The notes under the pieces: model-generated
Databases searched by the model: none
What the model saw: only the letters and a program-made list of their open reading frames with translations
Told to the model about the DNA's origin: nothing
Shown: positions 32,966-62,680 of the stretch, piece after piece
Layout of the letters: every line of letters begins with the position of its first letter
Position numbering within the stretch: the stretch's first letter is position 1
From: Chamaesiphon sp.
GTDB taxonomy: Bacteria; Cyanobacteriota; Cyanobacteriia; Cyanobacteriales; Chamaesiphonaceae
Reading direction: 5' to 3'
NCBI GenBank assembly: GCA_965246715.1
Contig: CBDFFH010000014.1
Coordinates: 1-64,000, forward strand
DNA length: 64,000 bases
Made by a program: the position numbers and the translations under genes

Positions 32966-33136
32966 GACCCAACCCACCCCGCCCATTCGAGCACCCCTGT
33001 CTTGAAAAGGTGCTCGACTTGCGGAGTTGGGTCGGATGGGTTCCCCATCCGTGACCCATACCCAAGCAGGGGAAACCCCAAGATCTAATGGTCGGCTAGC
33101 CGACCAAATGCACTTTTCGCTCCTCGGAGGGGAATT
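32966..33136. repeat. CCCACCCC...CCCCTCC-GGAGGGGAATT repeat containing a 123-nt AGCG...CAAGAC element (32999-33121, minus strand)
   Basis: GCACCCCT|GTCTTGAAAAGGTGC...GCACTTTTCGCT|CCTCGGAGGGGAATT. Confidence 0.65.
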
Positions 33137-33140
33137 TACT

Positions 33141-33184
33141 ATCCCCTATTACCTATTCCCTATCCCCTATTCCCCTATACCCTA
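33141..33184. repeat. STRR-like heptamer tandem repeat
   Basis: Repeated TCCCCTA-like units. Confidence 0.6.
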
Positions 33185-33191
33185 AAAACTA

Positions 33192-33957
33192 ATGACTAAC
33201 GTTATCAGCGATACCCAGCCGATTGTTGCTAATAATACCCAACCAATTATTATTAGACTCGAAGATATTTATAAGACTTATGGAGTTGGCGATACATTAG
33301 TCAATGCCTTGGATGGCGTGGATTTGACGATCGCCGAGGGTGAATATTGCGCGATTATGGGGCCTTCAGGTTCGGGTAAATCTTCAGCGATGAATATTAT
33401 CGGCTGTCTCGACCAACCCACGAGCGGACATTACTATCTGGATAATCTAGATGTCTCGACAATCGCCGATAGCGAACTCGCCAAGATTCGCAATCTTAAA
33501 TTGGGATTTGTCTTTCAGCAGTTTCATTTATTACCCCAATTTTCTGCGCTAGAAAATGTGATGTTACCGATGGTCTATGGGGGAGTATCTAGTGCCGAAC
33601 GTAAAGAACGTGCTGTCGTTGCGTTAGAAAAAGTGGGACTGAGCAATCGGATGGCAAATCGTCCCAATCAACTCTCTGGGGGTCAACAACAGCGGGTCGC
33701 GATCGCGCGGGCGATCGTTGGTGAACCGCGCGTATTGCTGGCTGACGAGCCGACAGGGGCGCTAGATTCGCGGACTACGCAGGAGGTGATGGATATTTTC
33801 ACCCCAGCTCAATGAGACGGGAATTACGATCGTAATGGTGACTCACGAACCGGATGTCGCCAAACAAACCAGACGGATCGTGTGGTTCAAAGATGGGAAG
33901 GTCGTGCATTCTCACCTAACTCCTGCCGATATTTATCGCGTGGCAATGGCTGGTTAA
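33192..33957 (+). CDS. ABC transporter ATP-binding protein (LolD/MacB type), frameshifted near 33802-33805
   Basis: GPSGSGKS, LSGGQQQR, LADEPTG; removing one C from ACCCCA restores FTQLNETGITIVMVTHEPDVA...MAG*. Confidence 0.85.
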
Positions 33958-33969
33958 CATCTTAAATTA

Positions 33970-34365
33970 ACCTCAGTTCGGGTTAAGGATTTCCCTTTTA
34001 GACCATTCTTGGACTGGTGCTTAGTCTTAAGTTATTGGTGCTAAGGAACCTGGGTTTGGGGGAGGCTTGTCTTGGCTCGCTGCTTGGTGCGCTTCCATGG
34101 ACGGGAAACCCGACGGGCGCGAGCTGCTCCCCCAGACCCCCGGTTGAGGAGCGACCCAAATCGCGCTGAGGTTCCCGTCTGGCGACACGTCTCGCTTCAC
34201 TCGCCTACAGCGTGTGTTTGGGTCAAGACAGCGGAGTGCCCCCCTCAAACTCCCCTGCACAAGGGAGTTAGTTTGCAGCGTAACGCGCTCTGCATTAGCT
34301 CCGCAATGGGAATCGATCTGTGGGTTGGGGGTTATTGTTTGGGGGCGGTTCCGAAACGAAGCAAA
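33970..34365 (-). mobile_element. IS982-like MITE, one TIR lost, with nested hairpin insertions
   Basis: TIR ACCTCAGTTCGGGTTAAGG after TAAATTA; interior is the reverse complement homolog of 45312-45676. Confidence 0.7.
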
Positions 34366-34372
34366 TATCCGA

Positions 34373-35140
34373 TTATTGTTCTTGATAATTCCACAGCAAA
34401 CCACCATCGACATAAAAAGTCGAACCAGTAATATAGTCAGCATCTGCTGAAGCCAGAAATGATACTAGTCCGGCCACATCTTCCGGTTTGCCCAACCGAC
34501 CGAGGGGGATATTTTTGAGCACAGCATTTAGCTGTTCGGGGTTATTTAATAGATCGGTATTAATTGGGGTCTCGATCGCGCCTGGAGCGACATTATTAAT
34601 TGTGATACCTAACGGGCCTAACTCCACAGCGAGATTACGCATCATCATTTTCACACCACCTTTGCTGATGCAGTAAGACGTAAAGTGTGGAAATGGAAGT
34701 TCTTCATGTACGGAACTGATATTAACGATCTTACCAGGGCGATTTGTTTCCTTGAAGTGCCGGACGATCGCTTGCGTGGTGAAAAATACGCCTTTGAGAT
34801 TAACATTTATCACGTTATCGTAATCAGCTTCCGTGATATCGCAAAAATCGGCTTTCTTTTCCAGACCGGAATTATTGACGAGAATATCTACCTTTCCGAA
34901 GCGATCGATGCTTTCATTGACAAGTTTATTGACATCCGTTACTACACCAAGATCGGCTTGAATCGAATATGCCGTACGACCGAATGCTGCGATTTTTGCT
35001 TGTGTTTCTGCGGCACCATCTGGATCGGAGCGGTAATTAATAATGATATCCGCTCCTTCTGCGGCTAGTCGAATCGCGATCGCTTGACCGATACCCTTGC
35101 TACTTCCAGTCACCAAGGCGACTTTTCCAGCTAACTTCAT
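34373..35140 (-). CDS. glucose 1-dehydrogenase-like SDR oxidoreductase
   Basis: TGSSKGIG, NNSG, ISSVHE, YCISKGG, VAPGAIETPIN. Confidence 0.9.
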   Translation of the reverse strand: MKLAGKVALVTGSSKGIGQAIAIRLAAEGADIIINYRSDPDGAAETQAKIAAFGRTAYSIQADLGVVTDVNKLVNESIDRFGKVDILVNNSGLEKKADFCDITEADYDNVINVNLKGVFFTTQAIVRHFKETNRPGKIVNISSVHEELPFPHFTSYCISKGGVKMMMRNLAVELGPLGITINNVAPGAIETPINTDLLNNPEQLNAVLKNIPLGRLGKPEDVAGLVSFLASADADYITGSTFYVDGGLLWNYQEQ

Positions 35141-35246
35141 CACCGCTATTCCGTATTTATACAAGCATATTGAGTCACTAACCCGATCGATCTAGCTACC
35201 GAGTTCGCGATCTAGGCACTCCTACCGCAATTTCGATTTATTTATT

Positions 35247-35486
35247 TTAGTAGTTGTCTGCTGGCAAATGACGGCGCGGCCCAACACCTGGATCGGTTGC
35301 TTTTGCATACATTTCTTCGGGCATTTTATCCAGCTCGACTTGTAATTGGGCTGCCGAAAATTGATAACCGTATTCATGGGCGATCTCGACACACTCGTCG
35401 ATCGACTTTGCTGCTTTGAGCTTCTGATTTAAAGTTTCGTCGTGCTTAGCATCTTCTAAAAATTGACTGGGAATAAGTTCTGACAT
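35247..35486 (-). CDS. Nif11-like leader domain protein
   Basis: FLEDAKHDETLNQKLKAA...VEIAHEYGYQFS. Confidence 0.75.
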   Translation of the reverse strand: MSELIPSQFLEDAKHDETLNQKLKAAKSIDECVEIAHEYGYQFSAAQLQVELDKMPEEMYAKATDPGVGPRRHLPADNY

Positions 35487-35727
35487 AGGAGCTTCCAATT
35501 TAGATTGACTTGACGATGCTCGGCTCGATCGCCATGAAAATTGCTGTCTAACGATCTATTCGATTTCAGTTTGCTATTAACCGATCGGTTCAGACTTTGC
35601 AAAACAGAATCGCTAAATCTAACAGTAATTTAACTGCACTATTAGTAAATTAATCGAATCCTTCAACGAATGCATCTACCATAATTAGTATTTACATTTA
35701 TTGAGTTAACTGATGCCAGTATCTTCA

Positions 35728-36168
35728 TCACCAAGTTATTTCCCCTCTGGCGATACCAATAACGATCGCTAAGACCAAACAACCGAGAAAAGTTGCTACC
35801 AACATCAACAAGGCAAATAGTTCGCCCCCAGAGAGCGGTCGATCGGTAGGATCGAGATATGCTGAAGAGCGATACTTATCCACTCGTGGTTTGAAGGATT
35901 GAAAGTGTTCCGGTGGTTGCACTAGCACCACTCGTGAATAGCCGACTTGACGATCGTATGACAATCGCCGATCGGGATTGCTTACTACAGCATATGCTTC
36001 ATTTAAGGCTTGAAATTTAGCCTTTGCGGTGGACGTGGGTAAAGTAGTAGTATCTGGATGATATTTCTTGCTCGATTCCCGATAGGCGCGCCGAATCTCG
36101 ATCGGCGATGCGCTAGGATGCACTCCTAATAAAGCATAGTAATTGTCTGGTTCCTGCTTACTATCCAC
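35728..36168 (-). CDS. J-domain protein with C-terminal transmembrane segment
   Basis: NYYALLGV, KYHPD, LNEAYAVVS; likely GTG start at 36168. Confidence 0.88.
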   Translation of the reverse strand: MDSKQEPDNYYALLGVHPSASPIEIRRAYRESSKKYHPDTTTLPTSTAKAKFQALNEAYAVVSNPDRRLSYDRQVGYSRVVLVQPPEHFQSFKPRVDKYRSSAYLDPTDRPLSGGELFALLMLVATFLGCLVLAIVIGIARGEITW

Positions 36169-36190
36169 CAGTGCCGCTCTCCTAAATCCT

Positions 36191-37533
36191 TTAGCCCCTA
36201 ATCCCTTCCCTAGCTCGATAAACCAGTCCACAAATGCTTGCCAAAATCGACCATGCTAGAGTATTCAATCGCAACTCCAATGCCGTGACATCGGCGATAT
36301 TAAATATGATAAACCCCACAAAGGCAACTATGTAAGTAAAAAAGATCGTGCGTTCCGCGCGCCATTGGAGCGGAAAATTGAGAAACAGCAGTGTCCCTTG
36401 CATCACAATCCAACCTACCAGCCCAAAAAATCGCGATCGTGGCAGGGATACCGAGATTGGAAGATAGCATCAACAATAAATTATGTGGATATCCCAACCA
36501 GACATGGGTAGAGGCTTGATACAATGGGCCAAAACTCTGTAAACCCCAACCGGAGATCGGATGCGATCGAGTCATGTCCCAGGCAAAGTTCCACTGCGAT
36601 AAGCGGGTAATTTCGGTCGGTCGATTGGGATACATTTCATCGGTGATCCGCGCCCAAAAATAACGGGGGACGAGCGCTCTCAATGGTTCTTTGAGCGGCG
36701 GTGGCGCATAAGCAGCACTTAAAATTATCGTCGCGAGCGCGGTAACGATGCCAACGATCCAATACCAGCCCTGATAGATTGTAAATACCAAACTACCGAG
36801 CAGCGCAATACTCCAGGCAGCGCGCGAACTAGTCAGGATCAGCGACAGCGCACACAGTCCCAGCACAGCAACCAACCACCATAACGTTGGCGACCTCCAA
36901 AATTCCGCCTTGGGGCCTCCTTGAGTACTATTGGCACAGCGTTCGTGAAGATCGGCTAATAACCCCAATGCAAAAAATAAACACCATCTGGAGGTAAGCT
37001 GCCAGGGGATTAGCATGAGCGAATACGGATGACATCCGCCCCAGTGGTTCGCCACCAGCAGTCATTTGCCAGATATGTCCCGGAGTACCAGGAATCGGCA
37101 CAATCCCCCCCCAGCCCAGCATTTGACCCAATCCTAAGATCGCGATCGGCAGCGCAGGAATCAGGAAAATCCATGTCAACTGTCGCAACTGTGCTGGTGA
37201 CTGAATTAAGGTACTATAAGCGGCAAAAAAGGCAAAAAAAGGCAAAAAATTAAGTAGTCCTAGTGCTGCATCTCCTGGCTGCAACCCGAACAGGGAGATC
37301 GCGATCAGCCAGGGCGACAGTATTGCAAAACCCCAATTCAAGCGATGCTGGATAATTTCGCGCCCAGCTTGCCGCCAAGTTTTTACTGCGGCGATTACAA
37401 TTAACACCGCACCGACAGATGGAATTAGGGGGAAGATCGTCAATCCCACTCTCGCCCAGTTCCAAGCCGATTGCAAGCGCGAGTTGGGATGTTTCCAGCC
37501 CGCGCCCGGAATTAGGAGCGAGAGATTAACCAT
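36191..37533 (-). CDS. O-antigen ligase-family membrane protein with two apparent +1 frameshifts
   Basis: GRMSSVFAHANPLAAYL, LTSSRAAW, GWGLQSF and YPHNL fall in three consecutive frames joined at A6 runs near 36972 and 36426. Confidence 0.8.
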
Positions 37534-38950
37534 CGATATAATTATCCTCGATCGCGGCGATCGGCTCGTCAGCAACTTCACTACGATAAAAACTAGCGAT
37601 AATGCCCACAACCAACCACCAGATGGTTTGAATTTGTGGTCGATACCATTCGGTATCGACCAAACCTTGACACATAATCCCGATCGCGGCGGCAAGTGCG
37701 GCAATCAGCCAAAAGACCTGCGGATCTCGATCTGCACGCAATCGCACTAAGCTTTGTACCCCGCAATTTATCGTCACCACCAGCAGCCACACAAAACAGG
37801 CAAACCCGACAAAGCCGATCTCCACGATCGTTTCCATAAACACAGAATAGGCTCCCAAGGCACTGAAGCGGGGGCTAACTTGATAAATCGGGTAGATCTT
37901 CTTAAACACGCGATCGCCAGGCCCCCAGCCAAACAGCGGTCGCTCGTGAATCATGCGTTGCACCGCCGCCCAGACGTTAATCCGAAAATTATTGCTGCTA
38001 TCTTTGCTGCCGCTAAAAATACTAAACACACGATCGTGCAAATTTGGAATCAACAGAATCGCCATACCGCTAATAACAAAGATACTTCCAAAGGCGATCG
38101 GCACCGCCCACGATCGCCAAAATTTGGGCAACAGTGGCCGCAACCAGTAATACACCATCCCGACAGTGACTAAGACCATTACCGCTAGCCCAATCCAAGC
38201 ACCACGACAATACGTAGCTTGCAAGCACCAGAGATTTACACCCACCATTACTGCCGCGAGTGTTTTTGGCAGCCAGCCCCGCCACACAAACAAGGCGGCG
38301 ATACTAAACGCGATCGCCGGGAGCAGATATCCCGCTAGTAGATTAGGGTTATTGAGATAACTATATGCGCGTGTCGTCTTGGAGAGCGTAGATTCAACGT
38401 CTACCCATGTTGCCAATTGCTTGGCTCCATAAATCGACTGATTGACCCCATATACACTGACAACCAGTGCCACATTTAAAAACACAGCAATCGACCAATT
38501 CCGAATTTTTGGCGATCGACACAATCGCGCCAACATCACAAATAATAGTAGGTACTGACTCAGTAAACCCAAGCCCCGCACTGCTGCCTCTCGCGCTGGG
38601 GATAACCCAGTTGAAATTGCCGAAATTAGTAAAAATATGATTACGGTGACATGAATTGGCGTAATGCCACCCCGGCGATCGTCTGCAAGCGTCAATAACA
38701 CCCACAGAGCGGCGATGCCGACCATTAATGGCAGGAGTGTATCGTTTGGTAACGCTAGGGCTGGTAAAAAAGGAGACAATACAAAGACGGCTGAAGTTAG
38801 GATCGCCCCAATTTCGTCACCCCATTGGATCGACCAGCTCCGCTGCCGCCAAGACTGCAAACTACCCACCCAACGATGGCTGTAGCTAGATTCCATCCAT
38901 CGATCGATCGACAGATCCGCTAATGTAAATCGTTGCCAAAAAGAGTACAT
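37526..38950 (-). CDS. ictB: IctB family membrane protein
   Basis: LATWVD, RAYSYLNNPNLLAGYL, DSSNNFRINVW, DTEWYRPQI. Confidence 0.92.
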   Translation of the reverse strand: MYSFWQRFTLADLSIDRWMESSYSHRWVGSLQSWRQRSWSIQWGDEIGAILTSAVFVLSPFLPALALPNDTLLPLMVGIAALWVLLTLADDRRGGITPIHVTVIIFLLISAISTGLSPAREAAVRGLGLLSQYLLLFVMLARLCRSPKIRNWSIAVFLNVALVVSVYGVNQSIYGAKQLATWVDVESTLSKTTRAYSYLNNPNLLAGYLLPAIAFSIAALFVWRGWLPKTLAAVMVGVNLWCLQATYCRGAWIGLAVMVLVTVGMVYYWLRPLLPKFWRSWAVPIAFGSIFVISGMAILLIPNLHDRVFSIFSGSKDSSNNFRINVWAAVQRMIHERPLFGWGPGDRVFKKIYPIYQVSPRFSALGAYSVFMETIVEIGFVGFACFVWLLVVTINCGVQSLVRLRADRDPQVFWLIAALAAAIGIMCQGLVDTEWYRPQIQTIWWLVVGIIASFYRSEVADEPIAAIEDNYIDG

Positions 38951-39029
38951 CGGATAAATTATGAATTAAAAATTTATGAGTTATGAATGTATATTCATAG
39001 GCGATGGCATTATAAATTATGGATGAATC

Positions 39030-39338
39030 CTACCACTTCAACAAATTAAACTGTTCCATATCGACGGTATCGCGGTTGCGGTAGATCGACAAGACGATCG
39101 CTAGCCCTACCGCCGCCTCTGCTGCGGCGATCGCGATTACAAAGATGGTAAATACTTGTCCTTTAATTTCGATCGGATCGATAAAGTTAGAAAAGCCCAT
39201 CAGATTTAAATTGACGGCATTTAACATCAACTCGATCGACATCAATACTCGCACTGCATTTCTACTCGTAATCAGTCCATAAATCCCGATACAGAATAGA
39301 GCAGCAGCTAAGATCAAAAAATACGGTAATTGCAACAT
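39030..39338 (-). CDS. ndhE: NDH-1 subunit 4L
   Basis: [32 protein letters not shown]. Confidence 0.96.
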
Positions 39339-39382
39339 AATTTAGGTGTTTATTCTTTAGCTTCTACAAAACTAGCTACTAC

Positions 39383-39982
39383 TTATTTATTGTCGATTCC
39401 CGCCAATTCACGCGGACGTTCGGGCAGCGTGAGATTATTTTGTACTGAGGTTTGGCCGATAATTGCTTCAGGCATGAAGTCGCGACGAGCCAGCACGATC
39501 GCACCGATCATTGACATGAGTAACAACACCGAAGCTAATTCAAACGGTAAGAGAAAATCAGTAAAGAAATGCTTGGCAATCGGCACGATCGAACTCGTCA
39601 GAGGTGTTGCTGTCGAAATCTCCCACGGAGTCACGATCGAGATCGCACTTAGCAGGGCAAATAACCCGATACAAACTAATACCGTCGAACCTTGACGAAT
39701 CCAACCATTTTTTAAGGGCTTAAAGTCTTCTCGCTTGTTCACTAACATGATCGCAAATAGGATCAAGACGTTGACAGCACCGATATAAACTAAAATTTGA
39801 GCGGCGGAGACAAAATCAGCATTGAGCAGGATATAAATACCTGCAATGCTAATAAATACGCCACCTAATAAAAAGGCCGAGTAAACAATGTTAGCAAACA
39901 GAACTACGCCAAGCGCAGATCCCAACATTAGGCAGGAAAGGATTCCAAATGTGACTAAGCGAACACCTTCAGCAATTTGCAT
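39383..39982 (-). CDS. ndhG: NDH-1 subunit 6
   Basis: NIVYSAFLLGG, QILVYIGAVNVLILF, LPFELASVLLL. Confidence 0.95.
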   Translation of the reverse strand: MQIAEGVRLVTFGILSCLMLGSALGVVLFANIVYSAFLLGGVFISIAGIYILLNADFVSAAQILVYIGAVNVLILFAIMLVNKREDFKPLKNGWIRQGSTVLVCIGLFALLSAISIVTPWEISTATPLTSSIVPIAKHFFTDFLLPFELASVLLLMSMIGAIVLARRDFMPEAIIGQTSVQNNLTLPERPRELAGIDNK

Positions 39983-40070
39983 TTTTGTTAGTGGTTATTA
40001 ATATTTCCCTACCAAGATTGGGGTAGGGGTGAATCGCCTCTCACTGGAGAGGCTAGGAGCGAACATCAGC

Positions 40071-40637
40071 TTATTTAGCATCGGTATTGCTGTTAGCACG
40101 TTGAGATCCAGCAGCCAGATCGTGAGGTTCCATCACACCTTTGGGGAGGTAAGCCAGCGTGCGTAGTGGGGTCACCATCGGATCGTCAGTAACTTTGTAA
40201 GGTAAGCGACCGAGGGCAACACTATCATAATTGAGTTCGTGGCGATCGAAGGTCGATAGCTCGTATTCTTCGGTCATCGACAGGCAGTTAGTGGGGCAAT
40301 ATTCTACACAATTCCCGCAAAAAATACACACGCCAAAGTCGATACTATAGCTATTGAGTTTCTTTTTCTTGGTAGCTTTGTCGAACTCATAGTCAACTAC
40401 TGGCAAGTTGATCGGACAAACCCGCACGCAGACTTCACATGAGATACATTTGTCAAATTCAAAATGAATCCGGCCTCGAAACCGTTCGGACGGCACCAAT
40501 TTTTCATATGGATATTGCACGGTAATCGGACGACGCTGCATATGGTCGAAGGTCACAGACAGCCCCTGACCGATATATTTTGCCGCCTGCACTGTTTCTT
40601 TGCCGTAATCGACGACTTGTTTGAGAAATTTCAGCAT
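40071..40637 (-). CDS. ndhI: NDH-1 subunit I
   Basis: Two CxxCxxCxxxCP clusters; TVQYPYEK. Confidence 0.97.
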
Positions 40638-40715
40638 GAGGGAGTAATTTAGTGGCTAGTGAATTAGTTTTTACTATAACTCCCCTCCTGGAAGGGGTAG
40701 ATACTGTCTTGAATG

Positions 40716-41687
40716 TCAAGGGGTGGCGAGCGAATAATTAGGGTCAAAGGGCTGTTGAGACTTTAAAATGCCAAAAGCCAAATGGACTAATTTACGCATG
40801 ATGGCACCAATCGCCTGCATTTTAGCCTTGCCACGAGCGAGTAATCGTTCGCTGAAAGTTTTGAGCAGAGGATTATGACGCATCGAGACTACCGCAGGCA
40901 TATAAAGAGCTTTGCGGAGTCGAGAATTACCAGTACAAGACAACCGAGTTTTGCCATGAACGCTGGTGCCACTAGATCGCTCAGATGGAGTTAAACCCGC
41001 ATGGGCAGCTAATTGACGAGCATTCTGGTAATCTTCGATCCGACCGATTTCTGCCAACAAGACAGCCGCAGTCTGTGCGCCAATTCCAGGAATTGAGACC
41101 AACAGATCTCGCTGTTGTTTTAACTGTGGATGTTTGTCGAAATGGTCGCTAATTAATTGTTTAATTAGGGCTTGCTGTTCCTGGAGATAGGTCAGATGAG
41201 ATTGAGTGAGTTCAGCTACTTTGGTGGTGGCTGTTTCCACGCGATTGTGTTCGGCTGTGACCATGTCCTGAAGAGAATCTAATCGCCGGACCAGGGCTTG
41301 TAGTTCTTTGATTTCAGGGGCTGTTGGTTTCCACAGTTCTGGTTTAATTGCTGCACAAAAACGGGCAATCAATGCTGCATCAACTGAATCAGTTTTCGTC
41401 CGTAATAGTTCGCCCTTGGCAAACCCTTGAATTCGGGCTGGATTGACGACACTAACGGCAAAGCTGGCTGAGTAGAGGAATTCGGCTAAAGCGTCTCCAT
41501 AGATGCTGGTCGCTTCCAGACAGGCGTGCATTTGGTCGATCCCTTTTTGTTTGAGCCACTGCTGCAAACTCTCAAACCCTTGCAGATCGTTGGTGAATTT
41601 TTTGGATTTTGTTCTCGTCTCTCCCATGATTAGTACTACATGAAAGTCTTTTTTGCTGATGTCTATCCCTAAAAAATTAACTGTCAT
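40716..41687 (-). CDS. IS110 DEDD recombinase/transposase
   Basis: GIDISK, LEATS, KTDSVDA, SIPGIG, GLTP..SSG serine loop, LRKALY, MRKL. Confidence 0.96.
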   Translation of the reverse strand: MTVNFLGIDISKKDFHVVLIMGETRTKSKKFTNDLQGFESLQQWLKQKGIDQMHACLEATSIYGDALAEFLYSASFAVSVVNPARIQGFAKGELLRTKTDSVDAALIARFCAAIKPELWKPTAPEIKELQALVRRLDSLQDMVTAEHNRVETATTKVAELTQSHLTYLQEQQALIKQLISDHFDKHPQLKQQRDLLVSIPGIGAQTAAVLLAEIGRIEDYQNARQLAAHAGLTPSERSSGTSVHGKTRLSCTGNSRLRKALYMPAVVSMRHNPLLKTFSERLLARGKAKMQAIGAIMRKLVHLAFGILKSQQPFDPNYSLATP

Positions 41688-41725
41688 TAACTGCTTACTC
41701 CACTCCTAACTATGCTCAAAGAACT

Positions 41726-41892
41726 TGACAGACTGTTTAACTAACCTTGTGATTGCAGGCTTTTCGGTAAATCGATTGCCTAAGATACTGTCCAGCTTTA
41801 GGTGTGTCTGTCATCAGTTGTGGGAGCTTATCTACGCAGCAGACTAACAATGTTGTCTAAGGGGCGGGCCAGCTTCACCGATTACTGATGTC
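41726..41892 (-). ncRNA. predicted bridge RNA core (target-binding and donor-binding loops)
   Basis: Minus strand: LTG CCCGCCCCT (41868-41860), RTG GCGTAG (41837-41832), LDG ACAGTATCT (41791-41783), RDG ACAAG (41750-41746); stems CATCAGT/ACTGATG and TGACAGAC/GTCTGTCA. Confidence 0.85.
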
Positions 41893-42078
41893 CTCACTCT
41901 CACTTTCTCGCATCTGGCGATCGATCTCTGAAACTGTTATGGTTTCTTTACGCCGATCGATTTATTCCTCTGACTCCCTTGGTTTGTGTCGATCTCTTTG
42001 AACTACGTTTGTTCTAAGCATTGTCTATATCGATCGATTACCTACCTCTCTTTAAGATACAAGGGGTGGGTTCCAAAA

Positions 42079-43197
42079 TTATCCCCCAAAAGCAGTTGGG
42101 AAGGCTAATTTGAGCGCAGCAGTGAGCAGTAGATTGGCTAAGGCGACGGGGAGTAAAAATTTCCAACCAAGATCGAGCAATTGGTCGATCCGCACGCGGG
42201 GAACAGTCCAACGGGTCAGAATGGCGAGGAAGACCAAGAAATATGCTTTCAGGACGGTCATCGCAATCCCTAACGAGGCATCGACTACTTGTACCCACGA
42301 AGTGGCAGGATCGACATGGAATAAATTACTAATTAACTCGATCGGAATCGGACTCGACCAACCACCTAGATAGAGAACCGCAACTAAGAGTGCAGATAAT
42401 ACTAGGTTAACGTAGGAACCCACGTAGAACAGCGCAAATTTCATTCCGGCATATTCAGTTTGATAGCCCGCTACCAACTCTTCCTCAGCCTCTGGGAGGT
42501 CGAAGGGCAGTCGTTCGCACTCAGCCAAAGCTGAAATCCAGAAAATCACAAAGCCAACTGGTTGTCGCCAGATATTCCAAGATAAAATTCCATAGCCCGA
42601 CTGTTGCTGGACGATATCGATCGTACTCAGACTATTGGACATCATCACGATCGCCAGTACCGACAACGCTAACGGGATCTCGTAACTGATCGACTGAGCC
42701 GCAGCGCGCAATCCACCGATCAGCGAATATTTATTATTTGATGAATACCCCGCCATCAACAACCCGATCGGCACGATACTAGATAAGGCAATCCATAAAA
42801 ATACTCCGGTATTGATATCGGTAATCACCAAATCCTGACCGAATGGCACGATCAGATATGAGAGAAATACTGGCATCACGACCAAAACTGGCCCCATCGT
42901 GAAGAGATAGGGGTCAGCCTTGGCTGGCAAAATATCTTCTTTAAACACGAGCTTGAGACCGTCAGCAACTGGTTGCAGTACTCCCAAAGGCCCGGCATAT
43001 TCAGGGCCGATCCGTTGTTGGGCAGCAGCAGAGATTTTGCGTTCTAACCAAACATTGACCAGTACGCCTACCGTAGCACCGACGATCGTCAGTAGCATCG
43101 GAAACGGCATCCACAGCACTTTTGCTAGTTCCGCTGAGATCCCGAGGTCACTGAGGGATTGGATAAAAGTTCCTTGGAGATCGATACCTGAATTCAT
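42079..43197 (-). CDS. ndhA: NDH-1 subunit 1
   Basis: [45 protein letters not shown]. Confidence 0.97.
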
Positions 43198-45286: not shown

Positions 45287-45311
45287 GATCGTGTGCCGGA
45301 GAGGTAAATGA

Positions 45312-45676
45312 ACGTCAGTTCGGGATAAGGACTTCAGATTAACGACTCCTGGCTTCGTTTCGGAACCGCACCCAATCCACGAACCCCACCCACAGATCGA
45401 TTCCCATTGCGAAGCTAATGCGAAGCGCGCTACGCTGCCAACAGATCGACCCTTGTGCAGGGGAGTTTGAGGGGCGGCACCCGGAAGCTTCGCATCCTGC
45501 TCCTCAACGGGGGGTCTGGGGGTCGGAGCGGTGCGCACTCGTCGGGTCTCCCGACGTAAAAAGCGCAACAAGACAACCCCCAGGACCAGGTTCTGCCCCC
45601 ATCAGTAAAACTCGCAGCCCACAAATATATACCGCTTGCTGCTTCGCTTTGAACAGATCTTATCCCGAACTCACGT
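45312..45676 (+). mobile_element. IS982-like MITE (365 bp) with a nested 48-nt hairpin element at 45527-45574
   Basis: TIRs ACGTCAGTTCGGGATAAG / CTTATCCCGAACTCACGT; 7-bp TSD TAAATGA at 45305-45311 and 45677-45683. Confidence 0.85.
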
Positions 45677-45685
45677 TAAATGACA

Positions 45686-53492: not shown

Positions 53493-53569
53493 GTGAAAGT
53501 GTCCTGATTTGTATCACAGCAATGCGGAAATATTAGCAGCACACTGAAGATACAAACTCAAAAAATATT

Positions 53570-54121: not shown

Positions 54122-54147
54122 AAATCAAATATAATTTGGACAAAACA

Positions 54148-54819: not shown

Positions 54820-54827
54820 TGAAAATT

Positions 54828-55106: not shown

Positions 55107-55169
55107 TTAATTGACAGTTCGGGCGAATACTCTCTAGATTCTGAATACAGGCTTAGAGCAGGTGACAGT

Positions 55170-55382: not shown

Positions 55383-55465
55383 TCCGATCGATATTTGCGT
55401 GGCTGATGGTACGACCGATCGGCCCTGCCTTGAGATTATGGCAGACCGTAGGGTAATCCGATCGA
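55318..55465 (+). repeat. 74-bp tandem duplication of the DUF2839-like gene 3' end
   Basis: 55318-55391 versus 55392-55465, 7 mismatches. Confidence 0.9.
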
Positions 55466-55580
55466 AATGTACGGAGATCGAGGTAGAGATCGATCGCTAT
55501 CCTCCCGATCGAGAAATGTCATAATGGAAATGGATATTTTTCCATTTACCTACCTCAATAATTAGCTCGATCGATTGTGT

Positions 55581-56069: not shown

Positions 56070-56087
56070 TATTAAAAGCAAGTTCAG

Positions 56088-57863
56088 ATGTTGTTATTAC
56101 TGTGGCTGATCCTGGGGGCTGGTTTGCGACTGGCTGACTTGGATGTCAAGCCACCGTGGACGGATGAATTTAATACGATCGTCTTGAGTTTGGGTAATAG
56201 TTTCAAGTCGGTGCCGCTCGATCGAGTTATTAGTTTTCAAGACCTCCTTGCGACATTAAAACCGAATCCTGCTGTCACGCTGGGGGATGTCGTCCGTCAA
56301 GTAGCACTCGAAGATCGGCAACCGCCGATTTATTTTGCCATCGCGCATCTATGGATGCAGCTTTTTCCTCCCGATGGTGGATTTGTGAGTCTGTGGGCTG
56401 CTCGTGCTTTACCTGCTGTCATCGGCATCTTGACAATTCCGGGCATTTATCTGTGCAGCTATTTTGTCTTTCGATCGCAGCTTATCGCGCACCTGACTGC
56501 GGCGATGTTGGCAGTATCGCCATATGGGGTCTATATCGCCCAGGAAGCCCGTCATTATAGCTTGGCGATCCTCTGGATTGCAATTTCAATAAGTTGTTTG
56601 GCAAGCGCTTGTGGCTATCTCTCCAGACAGCAAAAAATACCTTTCGTCCAGATTTGCCTCTGGATAGTGGTGAATAATTTGGCGCTGGCGACAAATCAGC
56701 TATCGGCTATCGCCCTCATCGCGGAAGCGATTGTCGCGATCTCGTTCTATCTCTGGCAAATTCACCAAGCCAATACCAAAGCAGCCATAGATCGATCGAT
56801 CTTAGCGCTCGCGCTAACCAACTTGCTACATCCCAGTTGGCGGCGATTGTATCTGGTCATTTTGGGGACTGTCGCTGGTGGAATTTGGGGGTGGTGGTTA
56901 CTAGCGCGTACTTACGATCCGAGTCTGACAATGTGGATCGATAATACTCCGCATAAATCGATCGAAATCGTCAATCCGTTCTTCCAATTAATCGGCGCAG
57001 CGATTACGATGATGTCGCTATTACTTGTCGAAGTAGCAGAATTGCCGCCGCTGTCGATGCTGTCAGAGATGCCTATCGATCTGAATCTCCCGATTATTAT
57101 CGTCTCAGCGATTTTGATGCTGATTTTCTTTGGATGGGCGATCCCGCTGCTAGCTCGTGGCATTGGCATTCAGTTACGCCAATCCTCAACCAAGACTGGG
57201 ACATTAGCAATCGGCGGATTTGTGGCGATCTCGATCGGGTTATATTTAGTTATCCCCTGGCTGACTGGAGTAGATATTACTCAGGGAGCGCGCTATCATT
57301 TTGTCTACTTCCCCGCGATGATGATGCTGATTGGCTTGGGATTGGCAAGTTGTTGGCAAAGCTTACCGTCAATTGCCAAATGGGTATCGGGCAAGCAAGC
57401 TGTCGCGATCGTGCTATTAATGGGATTGGTTAGTAGTGCGATCGTGGCTAGTAACTACGGCTACCACAAATATTATCGTCCCGAACAACTGGTACCGCTG
57501 ATGCAACAGTCGGCACCGATACCCATGTTGATTGCGACTACGCATAATAGTTTGATTCAAGTTGGCGAGATGATGGGGGTGGCATGGGAGCTACGGCGTA
57601 CCGATAAATTCAAACAAGCCCCCAAAACTCAGTTTCTCCTCGCTCATCAATTGCAACGATTCTGCGAACGCGACTGTCCACCTACCAAGATTTTACGCGA
57701 GACGATCGATCGGATTTCACACCCGATCGATCTGTGGGCGATTAATTTTTATGCGCCAATGAGTTTACCCCCGACTTGTGAGGTCGATAAAAAGTTTACG
57801 GATGGGATCTATGGTTATGAATATCGGCTCTATCACTGTCAGCCGATTAAAGATATCGATTGA
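56088..57863 (+). CDS. GT39/PMT-like membrane glycosyltransferase
   Basis: PPWTDE, PPIYF..HLW, SPYGVYIAQEARHYSL; many TM segments. Confidence 0.85.
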   Translation: MLLLLWLILGAGLRLADLDVKPPWTDEFNTIVLSLGNSFKSVPLDRVISFQDLLATLKPNPAVTLGDVVRQVALEDRQPPIYFAIAHLWMQLFPPDGGFVSLWAARALPAVIGILTIPGIYLCSYFVFRSQLIAHLTAAMLAVSPYGVYIAQEARHYSLAILWIAISISCLASACGYLSRQQKIPFVQICLWIVVNNLALATNQLSAIALIAEAIVAISFYLWQIHQANTKAAIDRSILALALTNLLHPSWRRLYLVILGTVAGGIWGWWLLARTYDPSLTMWIDNTPHKSIEIVNPFFQLIGAAITMMSLLLVEVAELPPLSMLSEMPIDLNLPIIIVSAILMLIFFGWAIPLLARGIGIQLRQSSTKTGTLAIGGFVAISIGLYLVIPWLTGVDITQGARYHFVYFPAMMMLIGLGLASCWQSLPSIAKWVSGKQAVAIVLLMGLVSSAIVASNYGYHKYYRPEQLVPLMQQSAPIPMLIATTHNSLIQVGEMMGVAWELRRTDKFKQAPKTQFLLAHQLQRFCERDCPPTKILRETIDRISHPIDLWAINFYAPMSLPPTCEVDKKFTDGIYGYEYRLYHCQPIKDID

Positions 57864-57865
57864 GA

Positions 57866-58050
57866 TTCGGACATAGTGGGACACCAATAGCCAATCTACT
57901 TTCCTCCGGTAGAAACGATCGCGCTAGCGATGAAAGCAAGAAGCGAAGGACTAGGAATCAGGGCGACGGGAAGAGTGTTAGGAGTGGCAGCAAATAGTGT
58001 AATTAATTGGGAAAACCATTTAGCAGCAGCCTTATCAAATTGGTCACAAA
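57866..58050 (+). pseudogene. IS1-family transposase remnant
   Basis: Reads ETIALAMKARSEGLGIRATGRVLGVAANSVINWE (InsA-like HTH). Confidence 0.6.
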
Positions 58051-58167
58051 TGGGATCGATCGACATATTAACAGTAAGGTATTAACCACTGCCGCGATCG
58101 CTCGTTCGCATAGCGTGCCGGAGGCGATCGAAGTATACTCAATCCATGACCCTATCTCGATCGAATC

Positions 58168-59097
58168 ATGTCCAATTCTTATTCCCTCACGATTCATGGT
58201 GGTGCTGGTGCCCTAGAAGATCTCAAGCATGAAGCCAGTGCAGCAGAGTTCGAGCAGAGTGTCATCACCATCTTGGAACGCGGACGCGAACGGCTAGCCG
58301 CAGGCGATAGTGCCTTGGCTGTGGTGGAATATTGTGTCACCCTGTTGGAAGACGATCGACTCTACAATGCTGGATGCGGATCGGTGTTAAATGCCGATGG
58401 TAAAGTGGAAATGGATGCAGCCCTGATGGATGGGCGCGATCTTCGAGCGGGGGCTGTCGCCGGGATTAGGAATATTAAAAATCCGATCGCCTTAGCTCGG
58501 CGCGTACTGGAGCGGGGCGAGCATGTGTTGCTCATGGGTGAGGGCGCGTTAGAGTTTGCACGCTTTTGTGAGGTCGAAACTTACCCGGATGCTTACTTTA
58601 TTACACCAGCGAGAATTCAGCAGTTAACGGAAGCTCAGGCGGCTGGACGGATGACTTTAGACCACGAGAAGATAAAGCCAAATCAGAAGCTAGGTACTGT
58701 AGGCGCTGTAGCGCGAGATCTTCATGGCAATCTAGCTGCAGCGACATCTACAGGCGGATTGGTAAATAAACGGTGGGGTCGGGTGGGCGATACCCCAGTC
58801 ATCGGCGCAGGGGTGTTTGCGGATAATGAGACTTGTGCGGTATCGGCAACGGGTTATGGCGAGCAGTTTTTACGCACGGTGCTGGCGAAAACAATTTCCG
58901 ATTTCGTGCAGTTTCAGGGCATGGATGCTGAAGCTGCGGCGCAGGCGGGAATCGAGTATTTGGTCGCCAAGGTGAATGGCATCGGTGGGGTCATCGTCAT
59001 CGATAGCGCGGGGCGCTGTGCGGCGGCACAGTCCACTTCTGGGTTGATTCGTGGTTGGATCGAGTTGGGGGGCGAGGCGCGCTGTACGTTAGGATAA
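58168..59097 (+). CDS. iaaA: isoaspartyl peptidase/L-asparaginase (Ntn hydrolase)
   Basis: IHGGAG, EMDAALMDG, LGTVGAVA, ATSTGG, GRVGDTP. Confidence 0.92.
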   Translation: MSNSYSLTIHGGAGALEDLKHEASAAEFEQSVITILERGRERLAAGDSALAVVEYCVTLLEDDRLYNAGCGSVLNADGKVEMDAALMDGRDLRAGAVAGIRNIKNPIALARRVLERGEHVLLMGEGALEFARFCEVETYPDAYFITPARIQQLTEAQAAGRMTLDHEKIKPNQKLGTVGAVARDLHGNLAAATSTGGLVNKRWGRVGDTPVIGAGVFADNETCAVSATGYGEQFLRTVLAKTISDFVQFQGMDAEAAAQAGIEYLVAKVNGIGGVIVIDSAGRCAAAQSTSGLIRGWIELGGEARCTLG

Positions 59098-59123
59098 CGC
59101 AAGTTGCTACCTAGAAACGCCTA

Positions 59124-59538
59124 CGATTGAAATCGTGGCTACAGTTACAAAGTCCGCCTTCGCGGACTAATATAACCTCAGTTCGGGATAAGGAAAACTG
59201 ATTTGCTCCGCTCTAGCACCGCCCTGAACTGGAAGTGTCTCGTTCCGAGAGGCTACGCCAACGGGCTAATAGCTCAAGTTCTCTGAAGAGAACTACCAAA
59301 TTTCTTAGTTCGTTTTAACGAACTTTTGCTATGAGCAACTAATTTATTTGAGGGCGGTGCAGAAACGAAGCTAGCAATCATCGATTCTCCAAGGAGAGGC
59401 TATCGCCAACGGTAACCCTTATCCCGAACTCACGTTAATAAATTAGTCCGCGAAGGCGGACTTTGCGTGACGAGCAGCGATGCGCGCTCGTCTGGTCTCC
59501 CAACGTAAAAAGCGATCGAGAGAGCGGTTTCTAACCGC
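59124..59538. repeat. REP doublet with nested MITE and small elements
   Basis: Arms at 59124-59170 and 59443-59538; 47-nt insert at 59476-59522. Confidence 0.8.
59175..59435. mobile_element. IS982-like MITE carrying a second REP-doublet family and two 24-nt elements
   Basis: TIRs ACCTCAGTTCGGGATAAGG / CCTTATCCCGAACTCACGT; flanks TAATATA/TAATAAA; 24-mers at 59238-59261 and 59386-59409. Confidence 0.85.
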
Positions 59539-59643
59539 TGAGATTGTAGGTATCAACTTGGGTTAGGATAAGCGAAACCATGCGGATAAATTACGCAGCT
59601 TGCGCGCCGCTTGTTGGCTCGCAATTTTACCCCGATAACTTGC

Positions 59644-60408
59644 ATGTCCCCAGCGCCAGAACTAGCAGTTGAATTCGATCGAGTTAACTTCGAGATCGAT
59701 CGTCGTCCGTTATTATCGAACTTAAATCTCCAGATCTATGCGGGCGAAACCCTAGTTCTATTGGGACGTAGTGGTAGCGGCAAGACAACGACATTGAAAC
59801 TCATCAATCGCTTGTTAACTCCTACCAGTGGCAGCGTATTGGTAAACCAGCGCCCAACAACTGACTGGGATGCCATCAAACTCCGGCGGCGGATCGGTTA
59901 TGCAATTCAGGATACAGGGCTATTTCCACATCTAAGCGTGTATCAAAATGTGGCAATCGTCCCATCGCTCGAAAAGTGGACACAACCGCGCATTCAGGAG
60001 CGTGTCGATGAAATGTTAGTTTTGGTGGGGTTAGCACCGGAAGTCTTCGCGCGCCGCTATCCCCATCAACTTTCTGGCGGTCAACGTCAGCGGGTGGGGG
60101 TCGCTAGAGCCTTAGCCGCCGACCCTGCGATCTTACTCATGGATGAACCTTTTGGCGCGCTCGATCCGATTACTCGATTGGAATTGCAACAACAGTTTCA
60201 GTATTTGCAGCGACAACTCGAAAAAACTGTTGTTTTTGTCACTCATGATATTCAAGAAGCTTTTGTGTTTGGGACGCGGATTGGGTTGATGGCGGGGGGT
60301 AATTTAGTAGTATTAGGCACGAAAGCTGAATTTCTCCAATCTCAACATCCCGAAGCTCAAGCTTTTATGGCTTGTTTGACTGCTGGTGAAAATTGGAAAA
60401 GTGCGTAA
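59644..60408 (+). CDS. osmoprotectant ABC transporter ATP-binding protein
   Basis: GRSGSGKT, LRRRIGYAIQDTGLFPH, LSGGQRQR, MDEPFGALD. Confidence 0.9.
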   Translation: MSPAPELAVEFDRVNFEIDRRPLLSNLNLQIYAGETLVLLGRSGSGKTTTLKLINRLLTPTSGSVLVNQRPTTDWDAIKLRRRIGYAIQDTGLFPHLSVYQNVAIVPSLEKWTQPRIQERVDEMLVLVGLAPEVFARRYPHQLSGGQRQRVGVARALAADPAILLMDEPFGALDPITRLELQQQFQYLQRQLEKTVVFVTHDIQEAFVFGTRIGLMAGGNLVVLGTKAEFLQSQHPEAQAFMACLTAGENWKSA

Positions 60409-60423
60409 TTAAAGGAGAGCGTC

Positions 60424-61983
60424 TTGTTTTTTAGCGAATATGCCTCAGAAATTGTCCTCCGCACGGGCGAGCATATCATCTTAGTGACGATCGCAATGTC
60501 AGTAGCGGTCGCGATCGGGATTCCGATTGGGATTTTTATTACGCGCCAACCCAAACTTGCCACACCCATTCTCACTGTCGCGAATGCGATTCAAACTATT
60601 CCCAGTTTGGCAATTTTTGGTTTTCTAATTTCCGTACCATTACTCGGTGGAATTGGTAAAACTCCAGCAATTGTCGCGCTAACTCTATATGCGTTATTAC
60701 CCTTAATTCGGAACACTTATATTGGGATTAATAGCGTCGATCCGGCTATTAGGGAAGCGGCGATCGGGATGGGAATGACCGATCGACAACTATTATTTCA
60801 GGTCGAAATTCCGCTGGCAATCGGGGTGATTTTAGCTGGGGTAAGAGTTGCGACAGTGATTTGTGTCGGGATTGCCACGATCGCGGCGGCGATTGGTGGT
60901 GGAGGATTGGGGGTATTTATCTTTCGGGGGATTGCGACGGTTAACGATCGCCTAATTTTAGCAGGAGCGATTCCGGCGGCGGCGATTTCTTTAGGTGCAG
61001 ATTTTGCTTTGGGTTGGGTGGAACGACAACTGACACAACAACAAGAAAGACCAACAAAAAATAATAATCGTCAAATTGCGATCGCGATTGGTGGCATTAT
61101 CTTAGCGATCCTCAGTTCATTAATTTTCATCTACGGTCGATCGGTACCGACGATCGTTATCGGCTCAAAGAATTTTACCGAGCAAGTTATTTTAGGTGAA
61201 TTACTCGCGCAGCAAATCGAGAATAATACGCCGTTAAAAGTCGATCGCAAGTTTAGTCTCGGTGGGACGTTTATCTGTCATGAAGCAGTTAAAGCTGGAA
61301 AAATCGATGGCTATGTCGAATATACGGGTACGTCACTCACTGCGATCCTCAAGGAAAAACCGCTCGCGAGTCCACAAGTAGTCTTCGATCGAGTCAAACA
61401 AGAGTATCTCCAAAAGTTTCAATTATCAGTCCTCCCATCCTTGGGATTTAATAACACCTTTGCAATGATTATCCGAGGTGACGATGCCAACCGTTGGCAG
61501 ATTAAAACGCTGTCAGAGGCTGCTAAATATACACCCCAAATGCAAGCCGGATTTGGTTATGAATTTCTCGAACGTGCCGATGGTTATCCAGGCTTAGCGA
61601 AAACTTATGGTTTGAAATTTGCCAATCCGCCGCAACAAATGGAGCTGGGATTGATGTATCAAGCCTTGAAGGAAAAGAAGGTAGATTTGATCGCCGCAAA
61701 TTCTACCGATGGATTGATTCCGGCTTTAAAATTAACGATATTAGCAGATGACAAGCAATATTTTCCGCCTTATGAAGCCGTACCTGTCTTCAATCGATCG
61801 ACCTTAACTAAGTATCCAGACTTGCAAGGTGCGATCGATAAATTAACTGGGATGATTTCTACTCAAGCAATGCAACAGATGAATTATCGTGTCGATAATC
61901 AGTCTATTCCAGTCGAGCAAGTGGTGCGGGAATTTCTGGAGTCTAAACCGCAATTACGATCGGCTGTAAAGCAGCCAGCATAA
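60424..61983 (+). CDS. osmoprotectant ABC transporter permease/substrate-binding fusion
   Basis: QTIPSLA, EAAIGMGM, IGSKNFTEQ, YVEYTGT, FNNTFA, FPPY. Confidence 0.9.
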   Translation: MFFSEYASEIVLRTGEHIILVTIAMSVAVAIGIPIGIFITRQPKLATPILTVANAIQTIPSLAIFGFLISVPLLGGIGKTPAIVALTLYALLPLIRNTYIGINSVDPAIREAAIGMGMTDRQLLFQVEIPLAIGVILAGVRVATVICVGIATIAAAIGGGGLGVFIFRGIATVNDRLILAGAIPAAAISLGADFALGWVERQLTQQQERPTKNNNRQIAIAIGGIILAILSSLIFIYGRSVPTIVIGSKNFTEQVILGELLAQQIENNTPLKVDRKFSLGGTFICHEAVKAGKIDGYVEYTGTSLTAILKEKPLASPQVVFDRVKQEYLQKFQLSVLPSLGFNNTFAMIIRGDDANRWQIKTLSEAAKYTPQMQAGFGYEFLERADGYPGLAKTYGLKFANPPQQMELGLMYQALKEKKVDLIAANSTDGLIPALKLTILADDKQYFPPYEAVPVFNRSTLTKYPDLQGAIDKLTGMISTQAMQQMNYRVDNQSIPVEQVVREFLESKPQLRSAVKQPA

Positions 61984-61984
61984 T

Positions 61985-62680
61985 TTAATGGGCGTTGGTG
62001 GATTGAAGTATGACACCTTGGGTAGGGGCAATGTCTTGCCTCCCTTTTCGCGTCGGGGAACCCGACGGGCGGGAGCCGCTTCCTGAATTGCCCCTACCCA
62101 TCGAGAGATCTGTCAAAGGATTATATGAAATATTAATAGATTGCAATTTCAATAGATTACCAAAGTTCTCGGGCAGTAAAGTAAGTCGATTTCCATACAG
62201 ACACAACTTAACTAAATTGGCAAGATTGCCCATGCAATTCGGCAGACTAACAATATTGTTTTTAGACAAATCTAATTTGGTCAAATTAGTAAGATTACCA
62301 ATACTCTCTGGTAGGTCAATGAGCTTATTGTTGGAAAGGTATAAACCATTCAAGTTATTAAGATTACCAATACTCTCTGGTAAACTCACGAGATGATTAT
62401 CAACAATATTTAATTCATTCAATTTGATTAGATTACCAATACTCTCTGGTAAACTATGGATTTTATTGCAACGTAAATTTAATTTAATTAGACTACTGAG
62501 ATTGCCAACACTTTCTGGTAAGTGGGTTAATTTATTAGAAGATAGCCATAGCTCTGTCAGATGAGAGAGATTACCGATACTGTCTGGTAAGTATCTAACT
62601 TGACTATTTTGTAGACGCAAACTTACAGATCGATTTATCTTTGCATTTTCAATTATTTCTTCTAGACTGTATAGTTTCAC
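61985..62680 (-). CDS. leucine-rich repeat protein with a repeat-derived C-terminus (probably truncated)
   Basis: 23-aa LPESIGNL..L..L.L..N repeats; the tail after PLTDLS is encoded by a palindrome at 62019-62100. Confidence 0.8.
   Translation of the reverse strand: MKLYSLEEIIENAKINRSVSLRLQNSQVRYLPDSIGNLSHLTELWLSSNKLTHLPESVGNLSSLIKLNLRCNKIHSLPESIGNLIKLNELNIVDNHLVSLPESIGNLNNLNGLYLSNNKLIDLPESIGNLTNLTKLDLSKNNIVSLPNCMGNLANLVKLCLYGNRLTLLPENFGNLLKLQSINISYNPLTDLSMGRGNSGSGSRPSGSPTRKGRQDIAPTQGVILQSTNAH
62019..62100. repeat. GTAGGGGCAAT...ATTGCCCCTAC REP with a 48-nt AGCGG...CAAGAC element in its loop (62033-62080)
   Basis: TGGGTAGGGGCAAT|48 nt|TCCTGAATTGCCCCTACCCA. Confidence 0.8.

Follow-up and report, generated by a model that had tools for sequence, protein, structure and literature searches.

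The window, a 64,000-nt stretch of a contig from a Chamaesiphon genome (G000), carries members of a family of very small non-coding hairpin units, GCG[AG]...CAAGACA, of 47 to 52 nt. We are nearly certain that the family is a mobile element, and it is most likely a double-size variant of the cyanobacterial small dispersed repeats (SDR), and so a likely larger cousin of the smallest known mobile DNAs. The genome holds 118 simple copies, compared with 0 to 2 copies when the ends are permuted. The original prediction had described six stretches, which were recovered at their positions and with the stems assigned to them, as one family with fixed ends; in its register, 89 copies were found versus at most 6 (median of 1) across 59 permuted ends, far beyond chance. 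The ends are conserved in the larger set as well, but the proposed boundaries need shifting by one base: the element includes the invariant A that follows CAAGAC, and the A in front of GCG is part of the target. T or G precedes 29 of the 118 copies; these 29 fall into 15 site groups, and intact empty hosts occur elsewhere in the genome for 11 of the groups in the register GCG...CAAGACA and for none in the earlier register. The earlier statement that intact lengths are multiples of 3 fails as a general rule (it holds for 59/118 copies).

Both 48-nt units in the window proved intact. One (45528..45575, plus strand; covariance model score of 50.5 bits) lies in the loop of a hairpin host within a larger terminal-repeat element (45311-45677), and a DDE transposase gene of another genome (G290) contains an identical 48-mer in frame. 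The other (62032..62079, minus strand; 49.5 bits) is inserted in a REP-like palindrome with a GTAG foot, where it sits in frame toward the 3' end of an LRR reading frame (61985-62680), and its host is precisely empty in a close relative (G425), with flank orthology on one side only. The 60- and 123-nt stretches, previously listed as copies, are instead derived or composite. The 60-nt form (34068..34127, minus strand; 17.3 bits) corresponds, with 1 mismatch, to a loop-to-loop deletion of a 96-nt composite that consists of an outer CAAGACA unit and an inner sister unit ending in CCAAGCA. The 123-nt composite (32998..33120, minus strand) is a 51-nt outer unit holding two nested inserts, namely a 48-nt sister unit, GCGG...CCAAGCA, in antiparallel orientation (33021..33068, plus strand) and a 24-nt SDR-sized hairpin (33085..33108, minus strand) whose boundary may slide by one base. 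The sister unit has 24 pattern matches in the genome, and the 24-nt insert is present as 12 copies in 6 contexts and nests in itself. An 80-nt copy that had been overlooked (34151..34230, plus strand) is a 50-nt unit whose apical stem carries an insert of ~30 nt, and 10 forms of this kind occur in G000 plus the G425 tile. A degenerate 47-nt copy ending in CGAGAGA (59477..59523, plus strand) lies in another repeat and was not detected by the covariance model. The stub at 24600..24617 (plus strand) is an 18-nt, genome-unique remnant at a standard host site; it matches the reverse complement of a right arm and is likely a template-switch rearrangement.

The element was found in all 27 genomes of the genus and in 41 of 151 genomes of the order, with a patchy distribution by family (6/8 genomes in family f9, 7/7 in f5, and 0/7 or 0/8 in several others). 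The 48-mer had no match in the plasmid collection, and among viral contigs, 1 of 35 pattern matches scored with the covariance model. The length spectrum is sharp, with 138 units of 47 to 52 nt versus a single unit below 44 nt across G000 and the G425 tile, and the 18 short matches across 300 genomes were deletions or chance; on these two grounds, the idea that the unit is a nested pair of 21- to 27-nt repeats was rejected. Host sequences include REP-like hairpins, heptamer arrays, other copies of the unit, and genes, so the hairpins named in the original prediction are indeed used, but not exclusively. A single host position can be filled by up to 6 different 5' variants, and the unit is therefore not a fixed part of any host, which supports the earlier view of a non-autonomous mobile unit conserved in structure.

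Insertion is precise. Comparison of G000 with G425 revealed 12 precise filled/empty pairs, among them the window copy at 62032..62079, with precise empty orthologues at 6 of 44 testable loci in one direction (G000 to G425) and 6 of 20 in the other; this bears out the earlier claim of insertion without target duplication and supplies orthologous empty alleles in both directions. A homologous gene shows an exact 51-nt gap where the unit is absent, and gaps of 16 to 18 amino acids occur in four transposase or TnpB genes. Gene-borne units are 48- or 51-nt forms in frame, and 16- to 17-residue inserts from the unit occur in cyanobacterial PNKP, MutS2, CobN/Mg-chelatase, TnpB, and transposase proteins. 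Because the ORF mask of the target-context count contained spurious frames, these coding insertions are argued from the other comparisons.

No target bases are duplicated or lost, and the site reads W|R, favoring A|GNG. Among 104 approximately independent sites, position -1 was W in 103 and position +1 was a purine in 96; many of these loci were found with patterns demanding A or W before GCG, and W preceded 37 of the 38 that were unconstrained. Position +3 was G in 51 of 104 sites (26% background; P = 4e-7), with +2 unread. On the TGTCTTG strand, the crossover was C|T (equivalent to A|G) at 62 sites, T|T at 24, and C|A at 7. The favored target, A|GNG, looks like ACA|GCG, the sequence read across the joined ends of the unit. 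Structured targets lay within 3 nt of a hairpin loop in 14 of 24 cases versus a 29% background, and 8 of 104 sites were in heptamer context versus 0.5%.

The preference for repeats (19 of 32 independent G000 targets versus a 14% background) might suggest that no dedicated enzyme is involved and that units arise by template switching during replication or by gene conversion between hairpin repeats, hitchhiking in mobile hosts. The observations that 30 of the 44 orthologous loci either differ in the entire host or represent tandem cases and that chimeric and symmetrised units exist fit such an origin, which we nevertheless consider improbable: exact insertions with the same ends occur in unrelated coding sequences without homology to the unit, and the dinucleotide target rule is strict. 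Compensatory changes, for their part, can also come about when a template switch copies one stem arm over the other, and fully symmetrised and loop-flipped copies do occur, a point against the single-strand reading given below.

The covariation of the stems was borne out by Watson-Crick swaps in both of them. Stem positions were paired in 90.6% of cases versus 62.1% after shuffling (0 of 500 shuffles as high), and apical pairs, which had not been used for selection, were Watson-Crick in 166 to 170 of 177 cases, with 9 G.T versus 16 A.C. This purely Watson-Crick covariation leans toward a DNA rather than an RNA intermediate. An RNA and reverse transcriptase route has reportedly been proposed for SDR elements, and for the present family, a structured RNA could be reverse-transcribed or reverse-spliced in trans by a group II intron or other reverse transcriptases. 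Structure is kept while sequence varies, reverse transcriptases are plentiful in carriers (22 matches in G000 and 31 in the complete carrier G200), and loops on the TGTCTTG strand read GAAA, GGAA, or GAGA in 71 of the 86 that were scored. Yet neither strand has an excess of G.U-type pairs (10:10 and 9:16), the 3-nt loops flip between orthologous copies, the inspected introns do not carry CAAGACA/TGTCTTG at their 3' ends, and orientation relative to flanking genes is unbiased (13 sense, 17 antisense). Moreover, one carrier (G489) has no RVT_1 match, and an Rfam scan of the window gave nothing at the gathering score, with only two chance-level matches away from the copies. An RNA route is unlikely in our judgment.

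The original prediction recognized no described family. No published description was found in the literature searched, which covered few subscription papers and extended neither to Elhai et al. 2008 (Genome Res 18:1484) nor to its supplements, but the unit does behave like SDR elements as these are generally described. Elhai et al. are said to have reported SDR1-8 from Nostocaceae as repeats of 21 to 27 nt with compensatory stems that nest in themselves, in heptamer arrays, and in mini-transposons. The present family likewise nests in all three, and it shares with SDR a tiny, dispersed, non-coding unit, precise insertion shown by empty sites, and a conserved secondary structure with compensatory changes. 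It differs from them, on their reported description, in being about twice as long, in peaking in a non-Nostocaceae genus, and in targeting W|R rather than HIP1. SDR elements are also treated in the available text of PMC5861425, PMC4390886, PMC13756078, and PMC3733652, the first of which reports no SDR-like repeat outside Nostocaceae.

REP/REPIN elements, described in the accessible parts of PMC8266576, PMC3116915, and PMC6006769 as mobilised by TnpA-REP (RAYT), resemble the unit in having an imperfect hairpin that contains an internal loop and ends in a T-rich tip, in the absence of target duplication, and, for 62 of the 104 sites, in a C|T crossover on one strand. In contrast, our alignment has no GTAG/GGAG foot, the unit is single rather than a doublet, and no cognate Y1 gene is flanked by it (0/6 Y1 loci in G000 and 0/1 in G200); REP-like repeats act as its hosts. 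Non-autonomous IS200/IS605 derivatives (PATE-like), as commonly characterized, share asymmetric ends, a subterminal hairpin, the lack of duplication, and a target position -2 unread on the C|T strand, but the unit has one hairpin instead of two and no fixed 4- to 5-nt target, and no parent IS with these ends was found. Unlike MITEs, it has asymmetric ends without terminal inverted repeats and makes no target-site duplication, and unlike group II intron derivatives, it has no intron-type ends and no likeness to domains V/VI. Rickettsia palindromic elements are hairpin repeats that genes tolerate as in-frame peptide inserts. The tolerance is shared, whereas the present unit is much shorter than these elements as we know them, is mostly intergenic, and has non-palindromic fixed ends.

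No long version with a Y1 or IS110 gene inside it, of the kind that the original prediction suggested seeking, appeared among the matches listed for G000, where kilobase spans were only copies interrupted by a DDE insertion sequence. Co-occurrence profiling covered two proteins, the window's Y1 and an IS621-like IS110. The Y1 does not track the element (51/151 genomes; 0/8 in f9 and 1/7 in f5), and in G200, the single Y1, apparently of the IS605 TnpA type, has no element copy in the surrounding 1.5 kb. Mobilisation by an IS110-family bridge recombinase comes into consideration because the IS621-like elements of G000 end in a sequence that includes CAAGACA and because IS1111-type ends, too, lie at an offset from a subterminal stem. 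TCAAGACA lies a few bases past the stop codon in 8 of 8 full-length IS110 copies of G000, target duplication is lacking, and the C|T found on one strand is similar to the CT core described in the available part of PMC11208160. However, the IS crossover falls several bases past the shared 7-mer, the targets share 2 to 3 bases while bridge RNAs, in the text accessible to us, read ~11 (IS110/IS1111 derivatives would accordingly have a programmed target of ~11 bp and a co-occurring recombinase), and the stem sequence is not conserved. Close homologues were found in 12 of the 151 genomes, most of which belong to families lacking the element, and an IS110 domain is missing from three carriers with complete or nearly complete genomes. 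This explanation is very improbable and, for this clade, largely refuted.

None of the three mobile-enzyme families tested tracks the element or is universal among carriers, and the element is maintained in many families of the order. Both observations would suit a housekeeping tyrosine transesterase (e.g., a type IA topoisomerase) or a repair ligase pathway that inserts a hairpin oligomer with no dedicated transposase. Topoisomerase I leaves as its signature a C four bases before the cut. In the register established above, C at -4 was at background on the GCG strand (22/104) and only mildly raised on the other (39/104; P = 0.009); the stronger C (51/104) would fall at -4 only in a register that the T-preceded sites exclude. 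A universal enzyme also does not explain the patchy spread, and we regard a housekeeping origin as quite unlikely.

We give slightly less than an even chance to scarless movement of the unit as single-stranded DNA, which would be cut and rejoined in trans by an HUH-like (Y1-type) enzyme. The unit would exit its donor as a small closed dumbbell with ACA|GCG at the junction, and a single active site would read both this junction and similar targets that become single-stranded, such as hairpin tips, slipped heptamer arrays, and transcribed or replicating genes; on the opposite strand, the crossover would be Y|W, mostly C|T. Many G000 copies may then have spread passively within mobile host repeats. 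The available text of PMC8266576 describes TnpA-REP cutting single-stranded DNA at the dinucleotide C|T, with cleavage in vitro abolished by a change to T|T. Against the single-strand reading, 24 of the 104 sites read T|T on the TGTCTTG strand, and the C|T strand of the unit has no GTAG-like guide. More doubtful is a broader version of single-strand transfer, in which this family, the CCAAGCA sister, and the nested 21- to 30-nt inserts would all be cargo of an undescribed transposition pathway whose enzyme, itself unlinked, recognises dumbbells by their fixed geometry and recombines the 10-nt loop at the junction with any 2- to 3-base look-alike that is exposed, giving scarless, frame-preserving insertion of 48-nt units. 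No circle form was observed; in run X2 (contigs only), one back-joint at the TGTCTTG end fits a tandem copy or a circle alike, and no RNA run was listed among the sequencing runs that carry the element.

Since the SDR report, the movement of elements shorter than 100 nt has been an open question. The present family extends SDR-like behavior beyond Nostocaceae and adds short peptide inserts to cyanobacterial proteins. Its exact ends, a measured target rule that mirrors the junction of the unit, filled/empty pairs at strain level, natural compensatory variants in the hundreds, and carriers in culture among the named records make circle junctions, the strand, and the helper protein directly assayable. 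SDR-sized inserts of 21 and 24 nt and SDR5-like units in HIP1-type sites coexist with it in G000.

The CAAGACA family is a real, recently active mobile hairpin with well-defined ends and a well-defined target rule. In the Chamaesiphon sp. genome (6.1 Mb, 45.8% GC, 2789 HIP1 octamers), the ends AGCG...CAAGAC at 44 to 54 nt with a basal stem occurred in 89 copies, compared with a maximum of 6 (median, 1) for 59 permuted ends, and A followed directly 3' in 89/89. When the first A was no longer required, 118 copies were recovered, preceded by T in 28 and by G in 1. These T- or G-preceded copies form 15 site groups, and excising GCG...CAAGACA yielded a host known intact elsewhere in 11 of them, compared with none in the register of the original prediction (AGC...CAAGAC); one group matches neither register. 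The unit is therefore GCG[AG]...CAAGACA, without a duplicated base. Thus, the predicted family and its lack of target duplication stand, whereas the predicted boundaries do not.

All six predicted stretches were present in the window, but the longest two are not simple units. The 123-nt copy consists of a 51-nt unit, 24 nt, and an antiparallel 48-nt sister unit ending in CCAAGCA. The 60-nt copy derives from a 96-nt composite by deletion. The stub is what a rearrangement left behind and occurs only once. The original prediction overlooked an 80-nt copy at 34151-34230. Unit lengths in the genome were 47 nt (n = 30), 48 nt (n = 32), 49 nt (n = 16), 50 nt (n = 12), 51 nt (n = 27), and 52 nt (n = 1), so that the multiple-of-three length once ascribed to all intact copies applies to 59 of 118. 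Longer forms, at discrete sums of 69, 75, 80, 96, 99, and 123 nt, are nested composites. The sister family, GCGG...CCAAGCA (window positions 33021-33068 and 23 other matches in the genome), is built in the same way and apparently shares the W|G target.

The predicted covariation of the stems was borne out. Among 57 aligned copies (55 distinct), only the ends and one loop-closing pair are invariant; the structure was 90.6% paired, compared with 62.1% in shuffles (0/500 as high), and 217 cells were altered on both sides, compared with 74 in shuffles. Sliding the structure lowered pairing to 38 to 57%. This test is inflated by relatedness among the copies, and the scans themselves selected for the basal stem; the apical pairs were unselected, and four of them were Watson-Crick in 166 to 170 of 177 unique units (shuffle means, 60 to 96). 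Symmetrised copies and flipped loops also occur, so template switching can create compensatory changes as well. We argue that the geometry is nonetheless under selection, because length and ends are fixed. The apical loop is also among the GGG-N3-CCC hairpin tips at which a DDE_Tnp_1 insertion sequence often inserts (457 aa; contig C40, 38952-40491; inverted ends, 11-bp duplication; 25 end motifs genome-wide).

Mobility is evident from comparison with the close relative G425, of which 2.0 of 4.75 Mb (contig C3) was tiled, with 96 to 98% identity in the first region compared. Orthologous flanks were found for 44 of 143 copies, of which 6 were precisely empty in G425, 8 were filled in both genomes, and 30 had a host that was absent, replaced, or tandem. 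In the reverse direction, the comparison could be made for 20 of 32 copies and gave 6 empty, 6 filled, and 8 other sites. Of these 12 precise empties, 4 carry 4 mismatches across 24 flanking bases. The 12 include the window copy at 62032-62079, whose whole host is intact in G425, with the sequence past one arm differing. A copy in another carrier genome (G290) corresponds to an exact 51-nt gap in a homologous Chamaesiphon sp. gene, and four in-frame copies correspond to gaps of 16 to 18 residues in Chamaesiphon sp. homologues; the remaining 9 queries gave no match or no clean gap. Up to 6 different 5' variants occur at the identical base of one host.

Collapsing 267 copies to 104 roughly independent sites revealed W at target position -1 in 103 (37 of 38 where the site was found without flank constraint), a purine at +1 in 96, and G at +3 in 51 (background, 26%); +2 is unread, and -2 prefers C to G. 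The resulting consensus, (C/A)A|GNG, is similar to the junction formed when two units lie end to end, CA|GCG, and this similarity accounts for the CAAGACAGCG junctions, of which the genome has 44. Targets were enriched in repeats (19/32 versus 14%), near hairpin loops (14/24 versus 29%), and in heptamer arrays (8/104 versus 0.5%).

In the Chamaesiphon sp. genome, copies of 48 and 51 nt lie in frame inside small hosts in PNKP, MutS2, and CobN/Mg-chelatase genes. Other genomes supplied 138 copies for comparison, and there long open frames, some of them spurious, spanned 13 of 66 copies of 48/51 nt compared with 3 of 70 of 47/49/50 nt; frame preservation is therefore likely a filter acting in genes rather than a property of the unit.

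The family pattern occurred in 27/27 genomes of the genus (16 to 225 occurrences each; reversed-pattern controls, 0 to 1) and in 123 named records, 68 of them Chamaesiphon. A covariance model gave 122 matches in the Chamaesiphon sp. genome, where it was applied to 150 of 1425 candidates. Within the order, it matched in 41 of 151 genomes, distributed patchily by family. It supported only 2 of 23 pattern matches labelled non-cyanobacterial and 1 of 35 viral ones. A stricter pattern was found in 27 of 401 genomes of the phylum, several being chance singletons.

Single-strand transesterification best fits the joining reaction, because joining is precise and without duplication, structure is kept without sequence, and the target rule spans 2 to 3 bases. 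Our preferred reading, to which we give somewhat less than an even chance, is that the unit would pass through a single-stranded DNA intermediate and be acted on in trans by a putative HUH-like enzyme. Read on the TGTCTTG strand, 62 of 104 sites have their crossover at C|T, the dinucleotide that TnpA-REP (RAYT) cleaves according to PMC8266576; unlike canonical RAYT/REP systems, however, the unit has no GTAG guide, and 24 sites are T|T. No Y1 gene was flanked by CAAGACA units at the loci inspected, and the single Y1 profiled across genomes does not track the unit. Absences of enzymes are not decisive, because helpers can be lost after invasion. The window's own Y1 (IS200-like) transposase gene (4547-4954) is flanked at 4342-4461 and 4959-5078 by the palindrome family that is most abundant in the genome (135 copies of its top 16-mer). 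This layout is RAYT-like, and the motifs of the transposase may correspond to subclass 1.2 of PMC6006769.

A reverse-transcriptase route would suit the many carrier genomes that encode such enzymes, but none was found in carrier G489. Wobble pairs are uncommon and favour neither strand (10:10 and 9:16 in two counts), which leans toward DNA over RNA. Contig C43 has at 35000-43000 a cluster of several reverse transcriptase genes of group II introns, some of which seem to be nested in others. Mobilization by IS110 is unlikely, even though CAAGACA is common to IS110 right ends and the unit. IS621-like IS110 elements of two types (window 40716-41687 and 7 other full-length loci) lie, where inspected, at REP-like ...CCCC|TAC sites, with CAAGACA within their right ends. 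A topoisomerase signature was not borne out in the demonstrated register.

The unit works like the small dispersed repeats (SDRs) of Elhai et al. 2008, for whose features the comparison drew in part on PMC4390886, PMC3116915, PMC5861425, PMC3733652, and PMC13756078; PMC6006769 and PMC11208160 served for other comparisons. It differs from SDRs in lying outside their size range, and the family failed tests of membership in REP, MITE, IS200/IS605, IS110, and group II elements. We therefore file it as SDR-like but distinct in form. The family is probably undescribed, although it may already be included in Elhai et al. 2008, in the paper itself or in the supplements; the portion of PMC3184786 covered does not mention SDRs, and the corresponding part of its table holds no unit of this size. 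SDR5-like 24-nt hairpins, at HIP1-type GCGAT...CG sites, also occur here outside Nostocaceae (19 pattern matches in the genome; in the window near 13430-13458, 14970-15001, and 59238-59263).

Terminal-repeat elements at window positions 45311-45677 and 59174-59436, with a further end at 33969, contain several nested hairpin families, and the content of the 45.5-kb region differs in G425. The purL gene carries an intein (window 20648-24559).
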